A stretch of DNA of 20,000 nucleotides from IMG/VR virus record IMGVR_UViG_3300028805_000099. One strand, given 5' to 3'. How positions within the stretch are numbered: position 1 is the stretch's first letter; each line of letters starts with the position of its first letter. The stretch is from an uncultured virus (IMG/VR IMGVR_UViG_3300028805_000099). Its lineage: Duplodnaviria > Heunggongvirae > Uroviricota > Caudoviricetes > Crassvirales. Positions 1 to 18,829 of the stretch are shown here, piece after piece. Under the pieces are notes generated by a model. It saw only the letters and a program-made list of their open reading frames with translations. It was not told the origin of the DNA and did not search any database. The position numbers were made by a program, and so were the translations under genes.

Positions 1-299
1 CATAATCATACCTTGCAATCACATAATATTCATTGTCATAATATTCCTGTCGAGTAAGAACATATTTACTATAATTCTTGTTTTCTATTTTTTTTTGGCA
101 ATGCTTCATCAACTGAAATCCATTTGTTTTGCAATGCAAAGGATATTCCATGCTCAAAAAATACACTTCCTGCCTTCTCAAGGAAAATCTTAATAGCAGG
201 CTCTAACTCCATACCGTTTTCATATCTAAATGATTCGACATATTCTTGAATTATTTTCTTTTCTGTTGCCTCAATCCGTTTTTGTAGTATTGTGTTCAT
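1..299 (-). pseudogene. Hypothetical protein with DUF551-like C-terminal part, frameshifted in an A9 tract; runs off the window edge
   Basis: ORF 69..299 reaches WISVDEALP then an A9 run (plus-strand T 88-96). Removing one A gives KKIENKNYSKYVLTRQEYYDNEYYVIARYDY, open to position 1. Confidence 0.55.
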
Positions 300-7788: not shown

Positions 7789-9815
7789 TGGTCTCCAACA
7801 GATGCTTCTGCTGGAATAGGCAATTTATGGTAAAATTTAGCTGCTGCATCTTGCATTATTTTTGATACTATATTTGGATAAGTATCTTTCAATTCTTTTG
7901 GAAATTCAGTATTGATTTCATCATGAGTAAAATTACAAAACAATATTTTATTAAAATAATTGTTATCTATAACCCAGTTAAAAAGATTTATTATAGCTGT
8001 CTTAAGGACAATGGCTCCTCCACCTTGTGTTGGGCTGTTTAAAGCAGCTCTATCCCAAGAAGATGCAGCTTTAAAATGATTTTTAACCATTATAGCAACA
8101 TCATCATTTGTTCCTTTATGATTTAATTTATAATCTTCCCAAAATTCTGGAGTAAATGAAGCTTGTCTTTTTTTCCATTCCTCCCAATCCCACCAATATT
8201 GTTTATGCCCAGTATCTTTCATTATAAGGACATATCCTTTATTTCTTACTTCTTTGCTTCCTCTTATTTTAAAAGCCGCTAAACCTGTCATTCCACTAAG
8301 CAGATTTGTAACTAATGTTCTTGCTTCTTCAACAGGTATACCTAATTGAGGAGCTACAGCAGTACCATCCGAACCAAATTGAACAGCAAATTCAATACTC
8401 TTCACTTTATTTCTTAAATCAGGCCTTTTGCTTTTTACATCCTTAGTATCAATATCTTTTAGTTCTTCAGAAAACACAGCTTTAGCATAAGCAGCATGAG
8501 AGTCACCTGAGCCATAAATGAATTCATCAAGTAATTTCTTTTCATTATATACTTCGGCACCTATTCTTGCTTCCATAGCACTATAATCACAACTACAGAA
8601 TAAATTTCCCTTTTCTGCAACAAAACATGCTCTGGTTTCTTCATCATGTGGAAGTTGTTGCATATTAACCATTTTAACTTCCTTTAGTTTCTTATACTTT
8701 GCTAAATCAGTATCTTCACCTGAGCCTGATGACATTCTTCCAGTTGAAGTACCTATTTGCCAATAACTGGTATGAAGTCTTCCTGTAACAGGATTAATTA
8801 AGTTCAAATGACCTTGACCAAAAGAAGTAGTAAGTTTATAATATCCTTGATAATCAAAGTATAAACTTAAAAATTTATCATCTATTCCTTTTTGAGTTTT
8901 AAGGTTCTTCTCTTGCACAGAGTCAGCTTCTTTATTTGTAACTTTGCTAACTGCAACTAAATTGAATCCAAGAGCTTTAAATACTTGCTTTGCTTCATCT
9001 TTTTGCCAATCTATTCTAAACTTTGGTGTTGGGTCAAATTCAGCAAATAAATCAAGCTGATTATCTACATATACCCACTTTTGTAATTTAGGATTTGATA
9101 TACAATAGTCATTCAAAGCTTTCAAAGACTTATCAAGATTCTCTTTGTCTTTTTGCATCTTGGCTTTCCATTTTGTTTCATCTAATTTTATTCCACACCA
9201 TTCTAGATAAGCCATTGCAGGTACTACATCACACTCTAGTTTAGCTCCAACTAAACATTCTTTTTCTTTGCATTCTTTTATTTGAGATTGCATTATATCA
9301 TAAAGAGGAACTACATCATTTGCAGCATATCTTATTACACTTTCATCTAGGCCTCTCCATATAATTTGGCCTCTTATAGACTTATCTATATTTTTATTTA
9401 ATCTTCTTAAGGCTACTGCTTGAAGACTATAAGATATTTGTCCAGGAGGAAACCCTAAATGCAGTACTTGCTCTACAGTCATAGTATCATATACCTTTCT
9501 TGGTATAATACCATAATTATAAAGAAACTGTAAGTCAAATTTAAGATTATGTCCTATTATATATTTATTCTCTAACAATTCTTTATACTTTAAAGGAGAG
9601 ACAGTGGTAGTATCAACTACCACTTGGTCTCTACCTTCAGTATCTCCAAATTGAATACAAAGCAAATTGCAAAGATGAGGATTCTTTCCATCAGTTTCAG
9701 AATCAAATTGAACCATAAGCCACTTGCTTATTTTATCAATAGACTCTTCTACTGAGATATTTTTTATCCCATCTAATTCAAAAAGACTTTGTTGTCCAGA
9801 TACCAAATAAATCAT
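7776..9815 (-). CDS. polA: Family A DNA polymerase with 3'-5' exonuclease domain
   Basis: ExoI DSET, ExoII HNLKFD, ExoIII YAANDV; TGRMSS; motif A DYSAMEAR; motif B R..K...F...FG; motif C HDE. Confidence 0.96.
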   Translation of the reverse strand: MIYLVSGQQSLFELDGIKNISVEESIDKISKWLMVQFDSETDGKNPHLCNLLCIQFGDTEGRDQVVVDTTTVSPLKYKELLENKYIIGHNLKFDLQFLYNYGIIPRKVYDTMTVEQVLHLGFPPGQISYSLQAVALRRLNKNIDKSIRGQIIWRGLDESVIRYAANDVVPLYDIMQSQIKECKEKECLVGAKLECDVVPAMAYLEWCGIKLDETKWKAKMQKDKENLDKSLKALNDYCISNPKLQKWVYVDNQLDLFAEFDPTPKFRIDWQKDEAKQVFKALGFNLVAVSKVTNKEADSVQEKNLKTQKGIDDKFLSLYFDYQGYYKLTTSFGQGHLNLINPVTGRLHTSYWQIGTSTGRMSSGSGEDTDLAKYKKLKEVKMVNMQQLPHDEETRACFVAEKGNLFCSCDYSAMEARIGAEVYNEKKLLDEFIYGSGDSHAAYAKAVFSEELKDIDTKDVKSKRPDLRNKVKSIEFAVQFGSDGTAVAPQLGIPVEEARTLVTNLLSGMTGLAAFKIRGSKEVRNKGYVLIMKDTGHKQYWWDWEEWKKRQASFTPEFWEDYKLNHKGTNDDVAIMVKNHFKAASSWDRAALNSPTQGGGAIVLKTAIINLFNWVIDNNYFNKILFCNFTHDEINTEFPKELKDTYPNIVSKIMQDAAAKFYHKLPIPAEASVGDHWIH

Positions 9816-10327
9816 TTGTCCTTTTGTTTTGGTTTAAATACCATCATTTTATCGTAGTCTATAACATACTTACTTGCTTGAAGGAAATTATTTCCAAGCA
9901 ATCCGTGTATTTCAATACCACTTTCTTCCTCTATTTGAGAAAAAGCGTGTTTGAAGTTAGCCAAAGGAAGTTCTATTTCAGTTACAGTTGTAGGAGTTTC
10001 AAGTTTTACCTCACAATATTCCGTTATTTCTTGATTTCCCCCTAAGCCAGTAACAGATTCATTACAGTTTTGGAATTTACATCCTAACTCAATAGCTGTT
10101 TGGGCATCTATATAAGAAATAGTACTTCCTGTATCCAATAAAAAATTAAGTTCTTTTCCATTACAAGTGAAAGGCACATATATAAGTCCAGTTTTACTAA
10201 TCTTTGTCTTAAATTCAGTTATATCGTGATAGTTGTTTGTTTCTTTAAATCTTAGCTTTCTATAATAAAATATTGTAGCTAATTCACAAGTAATTAATAG
10301 AAGACATACTATTAATAAAACTATCAT
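9812..10327 (-). CDS. Retropepsin-like aspartic protease with N-terminal hydrophobic anchor
   Basis: FLLDTGST catalytic motif, GLLGNNFL C-terminal motif, hydrophobic [12 protein letters not shown]. Confidence 0.85.
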
Positions 10328-10516: not shown

Positions 10517-10561
10517 CAATTTTATTATCGTATAAGTTCTTTATCTTATACTTCTACATCT

Positions 10562-11383
10562 TCATTTTGTTATACATGTAGTTTGGACTATATCTTCACT
10601 ATCATTATTGATAGGCAGGGCACTCGTGTCAACATTACTGTCCTCAGCATTATCTGTTAGGACTCGGTTGTTAGTCTCTGAACCCACGTAAATATTTCTA
10701 TAAACGCTTGGCTGCTGATTGTCCTCTTCAGGAGTTTCCAGCAATTCACCCTGTTTTACCACGACTTGACGCGTAATATCTAAATCTATAATTTGTTCAT
10801 AAAATTCTTTTTGTTCATTATTGCATAAGTCAAAAAACTATTCTCTTGATAATTTACCCGTATGCAATGCTGAAATTAATACATTTCCAAAAATTCTATG
10901 TATTAACATATGTGCATCTTTAGGAAGTAAAACTAAATTGTGTATATCATTGTTTGAATGATTTGCGTCTTTGTGGTGTATATGATAATTCTTTGGAAGA
11001 CTCTTTAAAGTTTCAAATCCAAAATATTCTTTTACAATATGTTTATGTAAATCTTTATCATTATCTTGAACACCGCATTCTTTTAATTTTTCTGCAACGC
11101 TTTTATAATTAGGATTACCTTTTCCAGTATTATTAATTGAACGCCATTTACTACTACAACTTGTATTACCACACGTTCTATGTTTATTTATATGGCTTTT
11201 CTTAACAAGATATTTCTTTCCACAAATTGGACATTCTAATTCAACTTTCTAATTATAACGCTTAGAATTATGTTTTCCTAAGCAGTTTCTACTACAACAT
11301 ACATATTTTTTAGCTCTACTTGGAAATACTAATTCGTGCTTTCCACATTCTGCACAAACAACTTCAACTAATTTACTTTGCAT
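10562..11383 (-). CDS. Intron-encoded Zn-finger/HNH homing endonuclease with two in-frame TAG codons (273 aa if read through)
   Basis: Manual translation: CAECGK..CCSRNC, CPICGK..CGNTSC, GKGNPNYK, IHHKDANHSNNDIHNLVLL...H...H. TAG at 11249-51 and 10838-40; no frameshift. Confidence 0.8.
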
Positions 11384-11417
11384 AATATACTTTATTTTAC
11401 AATAGATATTTACTGTG

Positions 11418-11449
11418 CAAAGATACAAATTATTTTAGATATTTACAAA
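11418..11449 (-). promoter_or_regulatory. Bacteroidetes primary-sigma promoter inside the dut intron
   Basis: TTTG (11449-46), 20-nt spacer, TATCTTTG (11425-18), matching the TTTG/TAnnTTTG consensus, about 35 nt upstream of ATG 11383. Confidence 0.75.
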
Positions 11450-11459
11450 TTTTTATTTA

Positions 11460-11719
11460 ATCGTGCCTGGAGTGTTAAGAACAGTTATTCCATGCTTTAC
11501 TGCCAATCCACTTCTTGGCCTTACTTGTCCTTCATATCCTACTGGTATTTCCATACTTATTCCAGTAGGAAATAACCAACGCTCATTAGGTTTAAGTATA
11601 ACACTTTGACACCCTTCTAAATAAGCATATAAATCTACTCCAGAACTCCCTTCTGTAGCATATTGAGGTACTTTACTGTCCTCATATAATTTCTTTATTT
11701 TAACTTTAATATCTTTCAT
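11460..11719 (-). CDS. dut: dUTPase exon 1
   Basis: Motifs I-II and start of III: SSGVDL, PRSGLA, LNTPGT(I). Confidence 0.95.
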
Positions 11720-12065
11720 AAAAATCTTCTAATCCTTTCTTATTTAAAATAAATAGTTTAGCATAAACGGTTGTTGTATTATCCTCTGGATTAAATTTGC
11801 TTGTAAGTTTAATATTGTCTCTAAATACCACATTTTTAGCAAGTTCATTATAAAGTGCATAATTAATATAGTCTCTTTGCCTAAACTCACTCTTAATTTG
11901 TCCAATATACTCACTCTCTGGTACTTTTATTGTACAAGATAATTTTGTAAAATTCCTTGGAGTGATATATACTGTTTTAGGTTCTAAATAAAAAGCAGTA
12001 TACCCAAATTTACAAGCTAACTTAAACAACCATTTGCTAAATTTATTGTTTGTTTTTAATTTCAT
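11706..12065 (-). CDS. Hypothetical protein
   Basis: 119 aa ORF overlapping both neighbours. Confidence 0.75.
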   Translation of the reverse strand: MKLKTNNKFSKWLFKLACKFGYTAFYLEPKTVYITPRNFTKLSCTIKVPESEYIGQIKSEFRQRDYINYALYNELAKNVVFRDNIKLTSKFNPEDNTTTVYAKLFILNKKGLEDFYERY

Positions 12066-12534
12066 TTTCCAACATTTCTATTTTATCATTAATATAGAAT
12101 ATTGCTTTTTTCAAATCTTCAATTGTCTTTTCCCCTTCAGTCATTGAAATATCTTTCTTATGTCCTGCTCTTAAGATATATTTCAATGTATTCCCCAAAT
12201 CAAAATCAAGATGCCTGCAAATATCAATAGGTTCTACACCACACAAATCTTTCAACCAAGTATAATGTGAAGGATGGTTTACATTATCTTTAATCTCAGA
12301 TTCTTCATTTGCACTTGAAAAATAAGTTATTTTATCTGGAACATCCTTATCTGTAAAATTATTTTTAACTGTTTCTTCAGTAAAATACTCAAGTACTCCT
12401 GCATCATTAACTATTGAGTATTTATATCCATCAGTATGTTCAAAGTCTTTACTTATTACCCTGTATAAATTCCCTTCAATAAATCTCGGTAATTTATTTG
12501 TTGTACATCTTACTACGGAATTCTCATCAATCAT
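12043..12534 (-). CDS. DUF3310 family protein (T7 gp1.7-like putative nucleotide kinase) with N-terminal extension
   Basis: VNHPSHY...E.ID...F.LGN.LKY..RAG.K...EDLKKA.FY signature. Confidence 0.85.
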   Translation of the reverse strand: MIDENSVVRCTTNKLPRFIEGNLYRVISKDFEHTDGYKYSIVNDAGVLEYFTEETVKNNFTDKDVPDKITYFSSANEESEIKDNVNHPSHYTWLKDLCGVEPIDICRHLDFDLGNTLKYILRAGHKKDISMTEGEKTIEDLKKAIFYINDKIEMLENEIKNKQ

Positions 12535-13027
12535 TATTATTTCCTTTCCAAAATTTATAAGTTATGTCTTCAAATTTAACTGGTTTTTTAGATATTTTCT
12601 TATACATTCTTTGATTTGTGGTCTTTTTGTTTAATGGCCCTAATGATTCTATATAGGGGCCAGTTTTAATATAATCAAACGAATTTGTTACTATTGGTCT
12701 GACAACAACATCCCCAAGACTATCTAAGCCAAAATACAATCCTGTATACCAAGCTGTCTTCAAACCAAATTTATGTACTGTAGTTGATAGTTCATATAAC
12801 TTCATTAAATCATTATCTCCTCCCATAAAACATACACAAGTAATTCCTTTGTTTTTGTCAATAAGCTCCTGCAACTTATCAACAGTAAGTTCTTCTCCTA
12901 CATCTTCCTGCAAATGTGGAGAATGGCATCCTTTACATCTATGATAACAATTACTAAGATTGATACATAAACTTATCTCATCGGGTACTTCGCTAAAAGT
13001 TACTTGAGTTTCTGTATATTTAATCAT
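12527..13027 (-). CDS. nrdG: Anaerobic ribonucleotide reductase activating protein (radical SAM)
   Basis: CYHRCKGCHS (CxxxCxxC), FMGGD, WYTG, KTGPY, TTNQR. Confidence 0.93.
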   Translation of the reverse strand: MIKYTETQVTFSEVPDEISLCINLSNCYHRCKGCHSPHLQEDVGEELTVDKLQELIDKNKGITCVCFMGGDNDLMKLYELSTTVHKFGLKTAWYTGLYFGLDSLGDVVVRPIVTNSFDYIKTGPYIESLGPLNKKTTNQRMYKKISKKPVKFEDITYKFWKGNNND

Positions 13028-13366: not shown

Positions 13367-14486
13367 TTAGAGTTTAATATCTTCTTCTTTGGTGTAGACT
13401 CTAGTCTTTTGTTCTATCTGTCTACCTTTTGACCAATTGTCTACGGCAGTAAGGTATCCAATTATTCGCGTCCAATACCTTATATTATTAGAGCCACATA
13501 TAGGACACTTATCTATTGGTGAATTTACTGTATGACCACAATCCTTACATTCACTCATTGGGATGTTGAAAGTAAAATAATTTGTGCCATTTGCTAATGC
13601 AAAATCCAGTATCTTAAGATATTGCTCCTTAGTCAAATGAGCATCCAAATTCACATGACAAGCTTGTCCTCCATCACTGAATTTGTTTATATCTCTTCCA
13701 TGAAGAGCTAGTTTATCTAACACTGATGTATTATCCCAAGGATTGTAAAAGTAACAGTTATATAGATTTTGGTCTTCTGGAACATAATAACCTTCCTTCT
13801 TATCTTTATCATAGAAACGAATGGCTGTTTGTTCTCCTGGAATACATTCACTATTGAATAAGAATGGTCTTTTCTTATCATTAATTGAATGTATCTTATT
13901 TTGTTCTTTGATAGTACCTAAAATAATAGATAAAAACTTCTTATATTCTTTATTGTTAGAAGTTTCTATTCCTAAAAACTTTGCTGCTTCAAAATATCCA
14001 ATTACTCCTATGGTACTATATAGTTTTTTCATATAGATATATCCTGCATTTGAAGCAGTAAACATTCCTTTGTCTTCATAATCATAAAGCATTGTTTTAA
14101 ATGCAATATGATATTTATATACTCTTTTAAGTATATTTATAAGATATTCTTTAAATCCTGACTGAGGAGCATAAAAAGTATGTAAATCAGCATAATCCGT
14201 TCCATTCATAGACTCTTTATACTCTTTACTCCAATCTTGAACAATTCTATTGATATTAAGAGTAATGACATTACAACTACCAGTCATAATACCAGTCATT
14301 CCTGTAGTTGAACTAAAAGTATTATCACTTATTTCATTCAAGACTCTACAACAACTTGCCAAAGACGATGGATTATCACTATTGTAGCAGAAGAAGCTTC
14401 CTCCTTTAGCCCATTCTTCAGCACATAACTCCTTATATTCCTTATCAAGGAATTCTTTGTTGTTATGTACCATTGCCATTGTTGTT
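13367..14486 (-). CDS. nrdD: Class III (anaerobic) ribonucleotide reductase, exon 2
   Basis: LASCCR, STIGVIG, IPGE, CxxC-CxxC Zn ribbon, glycyl radical TRIIGYL. Confidence 0.95.
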
Positions 14487-14639
14487 CATTTGTATTCCAC
14501 ATGAGTCGCTAATTCATATGCGTTCTCTTATGAACTGCTATATATTACTATATAGATTAGACTATATCACCTTCCATTTCTGGAAGCCTCCCATTTCCAC
14601 CCGCTTGAGTGTACTCCCTTTCGGGATAGTCGTTGAACC

Positions 14640-15188
14640 TTAGTTAATAAATTCCCATCTAAATCCAAAAGCTTTTCCATTTCTTTTTATTGCTCTACTT
14701 AAAGTAGATATGCTGCTATTTGTTTTTCCAAGATGTTTAACAGCTTCGTACATTGAAATGAAAATTTCTCCAGTGTCAATACATTTTACACCTTTTGAAT
14801 TTGATGGATGATGTTTGGAAGTATCATATAAACCTGTTTTAATAGCATGAATTGTGTTTTCCGAATATGTACACCATTCAAGATTTAAAACATTATTATT
14901 GCTTTTATTACCATCTATATGGTTTATACACGGTTTATTATCAGGATTTGGTATAAAAGTAATTGCAACTAGTCTATGAGCTTGGTATCTTTTCTTCACT
15001 CCATTTTTCATTAAAACAATTCTTTGGTAATTATCTTTTGTTGTTTCTGTTAAAAGATACTTTGCTGGATATTTCCTAGTACCATTGCTTTTATATTTAA
15101 TAATTCTTGGCAAACTTCTAAAATTTCCAAAATTACTTACTTGATAATAACCTTCATAAGAAGGAATGTCTTTCCAAATTTCATTCAT
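14640..15188 (-). CDS. Intron-encoded NUMOD4-HNH homing endonuclease (I-HmuI-like)
   Basis: EIWKDIP.YEG.YQVSN.G, HRLVA..F, INHIDGNKSNN...NLEW....N..HA; C-terminal NUMOD1-like domain; lies between Q and R (L6). Confidence 0.93.
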   Translation of the reverse strand: MNEIWKDIPSYEGYYQVSNFGNFRSLPRIIKYKSNGTRKYPAKYLLTETTKDNYQRIVLMKNGVKKRYQAHRLVAITFIPNPDNKPCINHIDGNKSNNNVLNLEWCTYSENTIHAIKTGLYDTSKHHPSNSKGVKCIDTGEIFISMYEAVKHLGKTNSSISTLSRAIKRNGKAFGFRWEFIN

Positions 15189-15212
15189 AACTCTTGGTTG
15201 CTAATTGTCCTG

Positions 15213-15244
15213 CAAAAATACAAAATTTTTCTTACATTTCCATA
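15213..15244 (-). promoter_or_regulatory. Putative Bacteroidetes promoter in the P5 region of the nrdD intron
   Basis: TATG (3/4 match to TTTG), 20-nt spacer, TATTTTTG (15220-13), 24 nt upstream of the HNH ATG. Confidence 0.6.
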
Positions 15245-15320
15245 CATTTGCATAGGATTTTTCAGCAGTTAAGGAGGTTTTCTTAATAAATTACTTTATT
15301 AAGCCGCAACTTTTATTTTT

Positions 15321-16441: not shown

Positions 16442-17464
16442 TTATTTATTTAACCATTCTATAATATCATTAGGCTCATCTAATTTTATTCCAATAGGGA
16501 CTCTTGGTTTTTCACTAAGATAATACCAAAGTTCAGTTGCAAGCTTTCTCCAATTAGGTAACTTGTATTCTCCATAATTACAATCTGTAACATCCTTAGT
16601 TCCTTTAAATTCCCAAACAAGAGGAGTTCTTGTACCATTACAAATTACTATGAACTGATAGTCTGCAATCTTGAAATCCTTAAAGTAATCATCCTTTTCA
16701 ATATTTTGCTTAATTAATTCATAGTAGAGCTGGGCCTGTATAGAGTAATTCCAAGCAATAAAGCTCTTATAAAACTGATGCTCAGGATGTCCTGATGTCT
16801 TAAGGTCATAAGGATAAATCACTTTATTCTCATAATCCGTAATTATCAAATCAGCCATGCAGCGCAAAGGAATACCATTATACTCTCCTTTAAATTTCAA
16901 CTGATAATAATGTTTGAGAGTGTCAGTATCTTCCCCAAACAACAATTTAGTATTAGGAGAAGTCTTTAATATTCTTACACAATCAAAAGCATCATTATAC
17001 TGTAACTGAGTAACAGGAGTCTTTCCATCTATTCTCTTTAGTTCATCATAATAAGGAGAACACTCTTTTATCTTCTTAACTCTTACATTATAGTACTTTG
17101 CATCAGTATAATATCCACAATTTACTGCTACATCTGAAAGTATTTGGTCAGGAATATCTTCTAAGCTATTATAAAATCCTTTATATATATCATATAAATT
17201 CTTTGTAATTTGTCTTAAGGTATCACTAAAACCAAAGTCTTGTACCAAAATAAATCTTTTGTTAAACTCTTCGATACTTCCAGTAAGTAAAGTATCTACC
17301 ATACTTCCAAAAACCAAAGAAGGAGTTTCTATCTTTTCAAATAATTTGTTTAACCCATCAAATCCTTCTCTTTCAAATCTGGATAGTGTAGAATATGAAA
17401 GTGCAGGGTCTGCCCTATATTCTTCTTCTGTAATGTTTAATGCTATATCTTTTAATTCTTTCAT
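16442..17464 (-). CDS. PD-(D/E)XK exonuclease (RecE/ExoVIII-like)
   Basis: LSYS.L, FGS.VD, ADLI...DLKT, Y..QAQLY. Confidence 0.8.
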   Translation of the reverse strand: MKELKDIALNITEEEYRADPALSYSTLSRFEREGFDGLNKLFEKIETPSLVFGSMVDTLLTGSIEEFNKRFILVQDFGFSDTLRQITKNLYDIYKGFYNSLEDIPDQILSDVAVNCGYYTDAKYYNVRVKKIKECSPYYDELKRIDGKTPVTQLQYNDAFDCVRILKTSPNTKLLFGEDTDTLKHYYQLKFKGEYNGIPLRCMADLIITDYENKVIYPYDLKTSGHPEHQFYKSFIAWNYSIQAQLYYELIKQNIEKDDYFKDFKIADYQFIVICNGTRTPLVWEFKGTKDVTDCNYGEYKLPNWRKLATELWYYLSEKPRVPIGIKLDEPNDIIEWLNK

Positions 17465-17718
17465 ATACTAAATTCTTCGTCACAAAAATCATTGATATAA
17501 CCATATCCAACATTAGTTTCTTCTTCAATATCAGGTAATGAATTAGCATTTGCATACTTTGCAACCATGTCGGATAGTTCTCTAACCTTGAGTTCAAAAG
17601 ACTCTACAATTTCCAATAGTCTTTCAAAATCTCTTTGTTCTATACACATTTGACAAATTTTTTTATCCTTCTCAGGCAGCAACTTAAGTTGCTTCTAAAT
17701 CTATTCAAGCATTTTCAT
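17461..17718 (-). CDS. Hypothetical protein, 85 aa if two in-frame TAGs are read through
   Basis: ATG AAA ATG CTT GAA TAG ATT TAG AAG CAA CTT AAG TTG... is in frame with track ORF 17461..17682; ATG 17718 overlaps the upstream TGA. Confidence 0.7.
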
Positions 17719-18197
17719 TCTGTATAATTTTTAATAATGTTAATAGCTTCAAGTGTTTCTTTCTTTGTTCTTACTACAAAATAGAAAGTTTTGGACATCT
17801 TCTCCAATAAGCTTACAAATAACTTTTTCTTTAATGGGAAAGTCTCATTAACTTTTCCTTTGGCTTCTATTATGACAGTAATGCCATTATAATCAAAGAT
17901 AAAATCTGGGGTATATTTTATATCTATGATTTTATCAGTTTCTTGATGAAAAGAACCTGATTCTGTTTTATTTTTCCTGTCATACACCTTAGATGTAGGT
18001 TTAAAGCCTTTCCACAATACAAAAGTTGTAGGTTCATATTTAGGATTCATTCCATTTTTTACTAGGGTTTCATATACCATTACTTCAAGCTTTGATTTGA
18101 AATGTATCCCATACTTTACTATCTTTGTAGCATTCTTTATTTTCTTATTTTCCTGCTTGTCCTCTTTTTTCTTCCTATTGTTTTTTCTAACTACCAT
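17715..18197 (-). CDS. PD-(D/E)XK endonuclease (T7 endonuclease I/DUF1064-like, possible resolvase)
   Basis: FKSKLE...YEP...YTPDF...IEAKG. Confidence 0.8.
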   Translation of the reverse strand: MVVRKNNRKKKEDKQENKKIKNATKIVKYGIHFKSKLEVMVYETLVKNGMNPKYEPTTFVLWKGFKPTSKVYDRKNKTESGSFHQETDKIIDIKYTPDFIFDYNGITVIIEAKGKVNETFPLKKKLFVSLLEKMSKTFYFVVRTKKETLEAINIIKNYTE

Positions 18198-18829
18198 ATT
18201 AATTCAAAATTTCTATAGTCTTTAAGAATTGTTTCAGTCTCCCTAAACACTTTATCAGGCATATCAACATTATTTCTTGCATACCAAGAAGGATGCTTTT
18301 CTTTTAATATAAAGTTTCCTTCTTTATAAATTACATTCTCAAATGATTGAGCATCATTACCTAAGAGAATGAAAACCAATGCTCTGTCACTGATGGAGAC
18401 CTTATGCAAGAGTGAACTTACAAAAGGTCTCCATATCCAGCTATGAACTCCAGTCTTTCCTACCATAGTAGTTAGACTAGCATTTAATGGTAATATACCT
18501 TGATTACACCAATTAACTAAATCATAAGGAGGTTTACACTCTTTTCTAGTACTCTTTAATAGTACTTTAAGTGAAGGAGATACTTGTTTCACATCGTTAT
18601 TATTAGCAAATGCTATCCCAGTGGAAACTCCTCTTTGCGGATAGGGGTCTAATCCTAACAGAATAACCTTCAAATTATTATAATCACATAGATTAAATGC
18701 TTTGAAGATATTCTTATAGGAAGGACACAAATCCCTGATATTCAGTCTTTTTATTTCATCAAGTGCTTTATGCAAGAGATTGAAGTCAATTACCTTAGAC
18801 CAGTTGCAAAAATACTCAATCTCTGTCAT
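18191..18829 (-). CDS. ung: Uracil-DNA glycosylase (family 1)
   Basis: KVILLGLDPYP, G.AF, SPSL, W..QGI..LN..LT, LLG..A, HPS. Confidence 0.92.
   Translation of the reverse strand: MTEIEYFCNWSKVIDFNLLHKALDEIKRLNIRDLCPSYKNIFKAFNLCDYNNLKVILLGLDPYPQRGVSTGIAFANNNDVKQVSPSLKVLLKSTRKECKPPYDLVNWCNQGILPLNASLTTMVGKTGVHSWIWRPFVSSLLHKVSISDRALVFILLGNDAQSFENVIYKEGNFILKEKHPSWYARNNVDMPDKVFRETETILKDYRNFELIW

Follow-up and report, generated by a model that had tools for sequence, protein, structure and literature searches.

The subject of this study is a small gene at 17461..17718, on the minus strand, of a 20,000-nt stretch of DNA (hereafter, the window) from the IMG/VR record IMGVR_UViG_3300028805_000099; all positions refer to the whole window. 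Read with TAG as Gln, the gene has 85 codons, from an ATG at 17718 to a TGA at 17463-17461, an extent indicated by its sequence and its homologues. On the minus strand, its 5' end reads ATG(17718) AAA ATG CTT GAA TAG ATT TAG AAG CAA CTT AAG TTG(17682), which places in-frame TAGs at codon 6 (17701..17703) and codon 8 (17695..17697). The TTG at 17680..17682, called as the start by the gene track, is probably an internal Leu codon, the 13th. Upstream lies a gene for a DUF1064/Holliday junction resolvase-like nuclease (17715..18197, minus strand), whose TGA (17717-17715) overlaps the ATG of the small gene (17718-17716) as ATGA. Downstream, the TGA of the small gene overlaps in the same manner the ATG (17464) of a PD-(D/E)XK exonuclease gene (16442..17464, minus strand). 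A preliminary description of this DNA, made from the letters alone, had pointed out the overlap at the ATG, the 12 extra in-frame codons with their two TAGs, and the overlap with the exonuclease gene, all of which are present in the sequence. On the far side of the resolvase-like gene, the uracil-DNA glycosylase (UDG) gene (18191..18829, minus strand) ends in TAG at 18191-18193.

The window has a GC content of 31.5%; its credible genes, all on the minus strand, take up about 95% of its length under translation table 11. PHROG and Pfam provided names for an rIIB-like protein, UDG, the DUF1064/resolvase-like nuclease, the PD-(D/E)XK exonuclease, NrdD in two pieces flanking an HNH gene, NrdG, a nucleotide kinase, a dUTPase fragment, a family-A DNA polymerase (PolA), an RNA ligase, and a polynucleotide kinase. 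All 44 phage records matched by blastn carry a crAss-like name or annotation, with 69-77% identity, in pieces. The gene order rIIB-like protein, UDG, DUF1064, small gene, exonuclease, and NrdD is common to IAS virus, cr112_1, and cr111_1 (Steigviridae). Judged by these names, matches, and gene order, the window is the replication and nucleotide metabolism block of a crAss-like phage (Crassvirales), nearest to the Steigviridae, with the capsid, portal, and terminase genes outside it. We saw no host gene in the window, and nothing there shows the prophage suggested by the earlier wording of a "resident" phage; according to PHROG and blastn, the whole window is a segment of a crAss-like phage genome.

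Stop codons were counted in the 30 other table-11 genes accepted as credible, the small gene being excluded. These genes comprise 6052 codons, among them 204 CAA or CAG, and contain no in-frame TAG by construction, having been delimited under table 11; we took them as complete because 16 have PHROG matches and PolA can be aligned end to end with its relatives. As had been remarked earlier, TAG stops are few: two of the 30 genes end in TAG (the UDG gene and the open reading frame [ORF] at 69..299), 15 in TAA, and 13 in TGA. Taken alone, the in-frame TAG pattern of the small gene is not beyond chance. Indeed, treating TAG as a sense codon likewise extends two of the 30 genes (11706.. and 14640..) through a single TAG to an earlier in-frame start, and, by a rough estimate, the chance of at least two TAGs without TAA or TGA in 12 random codons of the window's composition is about 0.7% per gene. 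We count the small-gene observation as real because of homology and the substitution pattern, and not because of the bare pattern.

The first 12 codons in close and distant copies

Scans of IMG/VR and of metagenomes yielded six further close copies of the small gene, which together with the window represent five distinct haplotypes (the window, identical to L139; L140; L141, identical to L004; G002; and G003), sharing 91.5-97% nucleotide identity over the first 200 nt. The TAG at codon 8 is present in all five, whereas the TAG at codon 6 is present in four and is replaced by CAA, a Gln codon, in L140. Among the haplotypes, synonymous site changes in codons 1-13 number six (codon 4, CTT/CTG/TTG; codon 10, CAA/CAG; codon 11, CTT/CTA; codon 12, AAG/AAA; codon 13, TTG/CTG), compared with two nonsynonymous ones (K2N and M3I). 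All four changes in codons 9-13 are synonymous, while about 18% would be expected to be so among random single-base changes, as counted from the codon table. Since no start codon precedes codon 13, codons 9-13 are translatable only by passing the TAG at codon 8.

The TTG at codon 13 does not behave as a conserved start: it is present in four of the five haplotypes and is CTG in G002, and it is thus most likely an internal Leu codon. The ATG at codon 24 is ACG or ATC in three haplotypes, and the only starts kept in all five are the ATGs at codons 1 and 51. By the measure of sequence comparison, the 12 codons of the leader are shown to be ancestral coding sequence still under purifying selection. 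The alternation of TAG and CAA, the synonymous changes, and the lack of a conserved later start before codon 51 therefore speak for readthrough of both TAGs by the ribosome.

Distant relatives extend over the same region. When the 85-residue form was compared by tblastn with the syntenic small genes of cr112_1, cr111_1, and IAS virus, the alignments began at query residue 1 or 3; their E-values are weak (0.03-0.5), and the matches fall at the same genomic position. A profile-guided scan of IMG/VR recovered 32 small-gene loci, 3 close and 29 distant. Every one of the 29 distant ORFs has its starting Met 13-15 codons ahead of an invariant Leu-Pro, which the ATG at 17718 precedes by 13 codons; all 29 extend over the TAG positions, and none begins at the position of the TTG. 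At the site of the first TAG, the distant proteins have Arg (24), Lys (4), or Ile (1), and at the site of the second, they have Arg (22), Lys (6), or Glu (1), so that 28 of the 29 carry Arg or Lys at each TAG position. Of 13 distant loci examined, 12 show adjacency or overlap of the small gene with the exonuclease gene, and the 13th is cut by a contig end.

The encoded protein belongs to an uncharacterized family of small crAss-like phage proteins with LPxxD, RDFxxL, and V..S motifs and an acidic tail; L14, P15, D18, R29, D30, F31, L34, V38, S40, and L48 are invariant in the 18 sequences aligned. The small protein matched no PHROG family, the 18 members gave no Pfam match below an E-value of 0.01, and Foldseek returned no match at E ≤ 0.001 in the PDB and BFVD, only weak matches to the protein's own crAss relatives. 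AlphaFold2, run on the 18-sequence alignment, proposes helices at residues 2-11, 16-27, and 31-59 (mean pLDDT of 74.6), with blocks of pLDDT 83-93 over residues 1-60 and a disordered acidic tail at 60-85. Our guess is that the protein would be a three-helix domain followed by a disordered acidic tail that ends in an aromatic residue; a start at the TTG would delete the first predicted helix. The small proteins of the Steigviridae (IAS virus YP_009981778.1, cr112_1 YP_010111469.1, and cr111_1 YP_010111330.1) have the same position, orientation, and start, and share L14, P15, D18, R29-D30-F31, L34, V38, S40, and the acidic C-terminal tail. The window protein, at about 32-38% identity to them, differs in having about 20 residues fewer after helix 3 and TAG codons in place of their Arg or Lys. 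Because of the conserved synteny, and nothing else, we would guess that the small protein is an accessory of a recombination/repair module formed with the resolvase and the exonuclease.

TAG as Gln and TAG as stop

The preliminary description had proposed that the phage itself is recoded, with TAG read as Gln, and both parts of this proposal gain support from relatives. G002 is a 72-kb contig whose PolA is 96% identical to that of the window, with about 90-91% nucleotide identity over the shared parts. In its first 30 kb, ORFs of at least 100 residues cover 15-38% under table 11 versus 93-100% with TAG as sense, and reading TGA as sense gives no rescue. Similarly, the coverage of the first 15 kb of G003 (0-15 kb) by such ORFs is 30-35% under table 11 versus 97-100% with TAG as sense, and G009, a contig overlapping G003, shows the same TAG-rich pattern as G002 and G003. 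Six giant late ORFs of G002 hold 252 in-frame TAGs, 240 CAA, and 57 CAG, TAG thus representing about 46% of the Gln-type codons; in this lineage, TAG is not a stop throughout. The identity of the inserted residue was assessed by aligning late ORFs of the recoded lineage with three nonrecoded relatives (G005, G006, and G008). Over 471 aligned TAG positions, Gln is the most common partner (68) and the maximum-likelihood identity, exceeding Glu by 66.9 log-likelihood units; when only conserved context is considered, Gln stands at 29 of 99 aligned TAG positions. These alignments, like the CAA at codon 6 in L140, speak for Gln.

Two more distant relatives, G007 and G011, are also recoded. The small-gene copy of G011 (L095) has an in-frame TAG at a Glu position, after which the conserved EEY tail follows in frame. 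G007, a complete 125-kb genome with a PolA 55% identical to that of the window, lacks the small gene. IAS virus was considered as a further TAG-recoded phage and rejected, since table 11 suffices to read the IAS-like G010 and G012.

At the end of the UDG gene, TAG has the opposite meaning. In all haplotypes the stop lies at an identical position, where the window and L139 have TAG, L140 and G002 have TAA, and L141, L004, and G003 have TGA; because the relatives carry the other two stops there, TAG acts as a stop in this gene. Within about 500 nt, TAG thus swaps with TAA or TGA at the end of the UDG gene and with CAA at codon 6 of the small gene. Readthrough of the UDG stop would add 17 residues, overlapping the next gene. 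The other TAG-terminated gene of the window, the ORF at 69..299, has an in-frame TAA immediately after its TAG (66-71), and several early genes of G002 and G003 have a TAG one or two codons ahead of a TAA or TGA; such endings could be backup stops against late readthrough.

A decoding tRNA was looked for in the lineage. The window contains no tRNA, and no tRNA with anticodon CTA was found in G001, G002, G003, and G009 with the Rfam tRNA model and with ARAGORN in default and relaxed modes. The tRNAs of G002, G003, and G009, whose records are 33-56% complete, are tRNA-Met, tRNA-Ile(tat), and tRNA-Leu(taa) only, and a three-protein search for the missing part of the genome returned one new overlapping contig or contigs already known. 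A tRNA with anticodon CTA is present in both G007 and G011. ARAGORN labels these tRNAs "Pyl," while the alignment evidence favors Gln over pyrrolysine. The similarity of the G007 tRNA to other tRNAs was uninformative on the amino acid carried, and the suppressor tRNAs of G007 and G011 are too dissimilar for a shared search pattern. No gene with an RF-1 domain was found in the five records searched. According to one survey, recoded crAss-like genomes without a detectable suppressor exist, and the presence of a detectable suppressor does not always go together with reassignment (Yutin et al. 2021, PMC7886860).

A double-amber start region and its alternative explanations

From these comparisons, we consider it very probable that the lineage reads TAG as Gln and that the small gene starts at the ATG at 17718, encoding an 85-residue protein (MKMLEQIQKQLKLLPEKD...) in which codons 6 and 8 are decoded as Gln. 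Since the UDG gene of the same operon is still ended by TAG, this protein is most likely made only once amber suppression is active. The two TAGs would be decoded by an amber-suppressor tRNA made during infection. Early in infection, ribosomes using the standard code of the host would stop at codon 6 and yield a pentapeptide; after the code switch, the full 85-residue protein would be produced, the two ambers acting as a tight gate in an operon that can otherwise be read with the standard code. Compatibility of the replication genes with that code was found both in the 30 table-11 genes of the window and in the 32-72 kb region of G002, where 60 of 69 naive ORF calls are free of TAG. Because two ambers must be passed, the yield would vary approximately with the square of the suppression efficiency. 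Readthrough may also, more speculatively, feed ribosomes to the exonuclease start via the ATGA overlap, a possibility suggested by the conservation of the adjacency or overlap of the two genes in distant loci. We propose, tentatively and with more doubt than confidence, that the double-amber gate ties a core protein of the resolvase-exonuclease module, and perhaps also the translation of the exonuclease, to the switch of TAG to Gln, TAG meaning stop in the UDG gene and Gln in the small gene at different times of infection.

Several points weigh against decoding of the two TAGs as Gln. Distant homologues have Arg or Lys, not Gln, at both sites. Ordinary nonsense mutations do occur in the small-gene family: in the copy (L075) of the IAS-like, nonrecoded G010, a single TAG occupies a Trp position and is probably a plain nonsense mutation. 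The counts of synonymous and nonsynonymous changes are small. As the window has neither late genes nor a tRNA, the recoding of its own phage is deduced from relatives that are about 90% identical. No tRNA with anticodon CTA was detected in the four lineage records searched. Finally, the UDG TAG, about 480 nt upstream, plainly works as a stop, so that suppression can be neither constitutive nor complete.

The same observations bear on an alternative that we regard as unlikely, in which the standard code holds throughout, two nonsense mutations removed the N-terminal helix, and translation begins at the TTG at 17682 (73 residues) or later, the upstream codons being a dead remnant or a 5-codon mini-ORF. 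A 73-residue ORF does run from the TTG under table 11, and the TAG stop of the UDG gene, the nonsense TAG of G010, and the lack of a detected suppressor in the lineage fragments all agree with it. However, both lesions are TAG, with no TAA, TGA, or frameshift, and the late genes of this lineage have TAG at almost half of their Gln-type codons; one haplotype has CAA in place of the first TAG. Moreover, the substitutions in codons 9-13 are without exception synonymous, and the TTG itself is CTG in one of the five haplotypes, with no other start conserved before codon 51.

We give similarly little credit to the existence of two products, a short early form made by reinitiation at the TTG after the ambers and the 85-residue form made later under suppression. 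The TTG lies only 12 nt past the second TAG and is present in four haplotypes, and both meanings of TAG coexist in the operon; on the other hand, G002 lost the TTG without a compensating start, and the short form would be without helix 1 of the predicted domain. Least credible of all is a decaying, untranslated pseudogene, as the gene, although short, functionally unassigned, missing from G007, and departing from its distant homologues in the C-terminal region, with a large internal deletion, keeps its frame, its ATGA overlaps at both ends, and its LPxxD, RDF, L34, V38, and S40 residues, with most changes across the five haplotypes being synonymous.

Known recoding and other TAG-bearing genes

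Decoding of TAG as Gln through readthrough of both ambers would place the small gene among known systems. TAG-to-Gln recoding ("code 15"), mostly of late genes, is established in crAss-like phages (Yutin et al. 2021, PMC7886860; Borges et al., bioRxiv 10.1101/2021.08.26.457843), and a further study is reported to validate it by metaproteomics (Peters et al. 2022, PMC9523058). The two meanings of TAG in the operon agree with a published model, in which early genes are read with the host code, and a suppressor made during infection later turns TAG to Gln (Borges et al.; Yutin et al. 2021). The lineage resembles the code 15 crAss-like phages, as portrayed there, in its TAG-dense late structural and transcription genes, its standard-code replication genes, the alignment of TAG with Gln, the low GC content, and the presence of tRNA(CTA) in related recoded genomes. 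It differs from the cases presented there by the pair of TAGs at codons 6 and 8 of a small core gene in the middle of a replication/recombination operon and by the lack of a suppressor tRNA in the incomplete contigs of the lineage. This case is a well-supported new example of the known recoding in Crassvirales and leaves knowledge of that recoding unchanged; what sets it modestly apart is that a core gene of the replication block has tandem ambers in its start region, next to a gene that still stops at TAG. A limited full-text search of the crAss-like recoding literature found no mention of the small gene, which does not show that it is unpublished.

In classical supE-type amber suppression, a Gln-inserting tRNA competes with release factor 1 for UAG. 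The full-length product of the small gene would likewise depend on a UAG-reading tRNA; unlike in supE-type laboratory mutants, the arrangement is natural and conserved.

The replication operon had been described as otherwise free of TAG. This stands for most of its genes but not for those of homing endonucleases. A 943-nt insertion (10517-11459), missing from G002, splits the dUTPase gene of the window, exon 1 ending near 11455 and exon 2 spanning about 10520-10331, and carries an HNH homing endonuclease ORF (10562..11383, minus strand) with in-frame TAGs at codons 45 (11249-11251) and 182 (10838-10840). No start codon permits its HNH domain (residues 129-159) under table 11, which makes this ORF the second gene of the window readable only with TAG as sense. 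The protein has 36% identity over 97% of its length to an annotated intron-encoded HNH protein in the dUTPase gene of Carjivirus communis (the original crAssphage), with a strongly conserved C terminus past the second TAG; a local tblastn search against the genomes of the compared relatives returned only the self-match. A second insertion, of 836 nt (14485-15320), divides NrdD into pieces of 379 and 370 residues and contains another HNH ORF (14640-15188, minus strand), which is TAG-free. This insertion is also present in L004, whereas NrdD is uninterrupted (745 residues) in G002 and G003. Since no Rfam family reached its gathering score in the window, the two insertions are unconfirmed as group I introns.

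In G002, a GIY-YIG-like homing endonuclease ORF (65336-66127, or L014:5336-6127, minus strand; motif GIYKI...YIGSS) carries an in-frame TAG (codon 6) ahead of the GIY motif and has no counterpart in the other relatives' genomes compared. It is one of nine TAG-bearing ORFs called between 32 and 72 kb, the others being four short opposite-strand ORFs, one with TAG at the penultimate codon, one of 51 residues, one artefact of a tRNA-Met, and the small gene. The artefact, at 71543..71869 with an apparent TAG at codon 6, overlaps the tRNA-Met and was discarded as spurious. Across these G002 ORFs and the window, the small gene is the only nonmobile early-block gene found with internal TAGs.

The endonuclease genes have a counterpart in TGA-recoded "Agate" phages, in which a recoded intron homing endonuclease inside an early gene was interpreted as being delayed until late in infection (Borges et al.). 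The HNH gene of the dUTPase intron, with two TAGs, and the GIY-YIG gene of G002, with one at codon 6, are direct TAG equivalents of that endonuclease. Unlike it, the small gene is not a mobile endonuclease gene; it is inherited vertically and belongs, with conserved synteny, to the resolvase-exonuclease module.

These results have practical consequences for annotation, as standard-code callers place a false start at the TTG of the small gene, overlook the HNH gene of the intron, and would break up the late genes of this lineage. With TAG as a true stop and TAG as Gln so close together, the operon also provides a compact natural test bed for the published proposal that a mid-infection code switch times protein production in recoded phages. 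If the gate interpretation is true, core replication/recombination genes, too, would have their translation timed by recoding, a role then not restricted to lysis and structural genes and homing endonucleases.

Two further features lie near PolA and the dUTPase intron. Directly downstream of PolA, a 171-residue protein (9812-10327) has a retropepsin-like aspartyl protease domain (PF13650; E-value of 2e-10) and is conserved in G002, G003, and G007. The segment at 11460-13027, beside the intron and including dUTPase exon 1, a 119-residue ORF, the kinase gene, and NrdG, is 76% identical to G002, compared with about 90% elsewhere, which suggests that this patch is recombinant or fast evolving.

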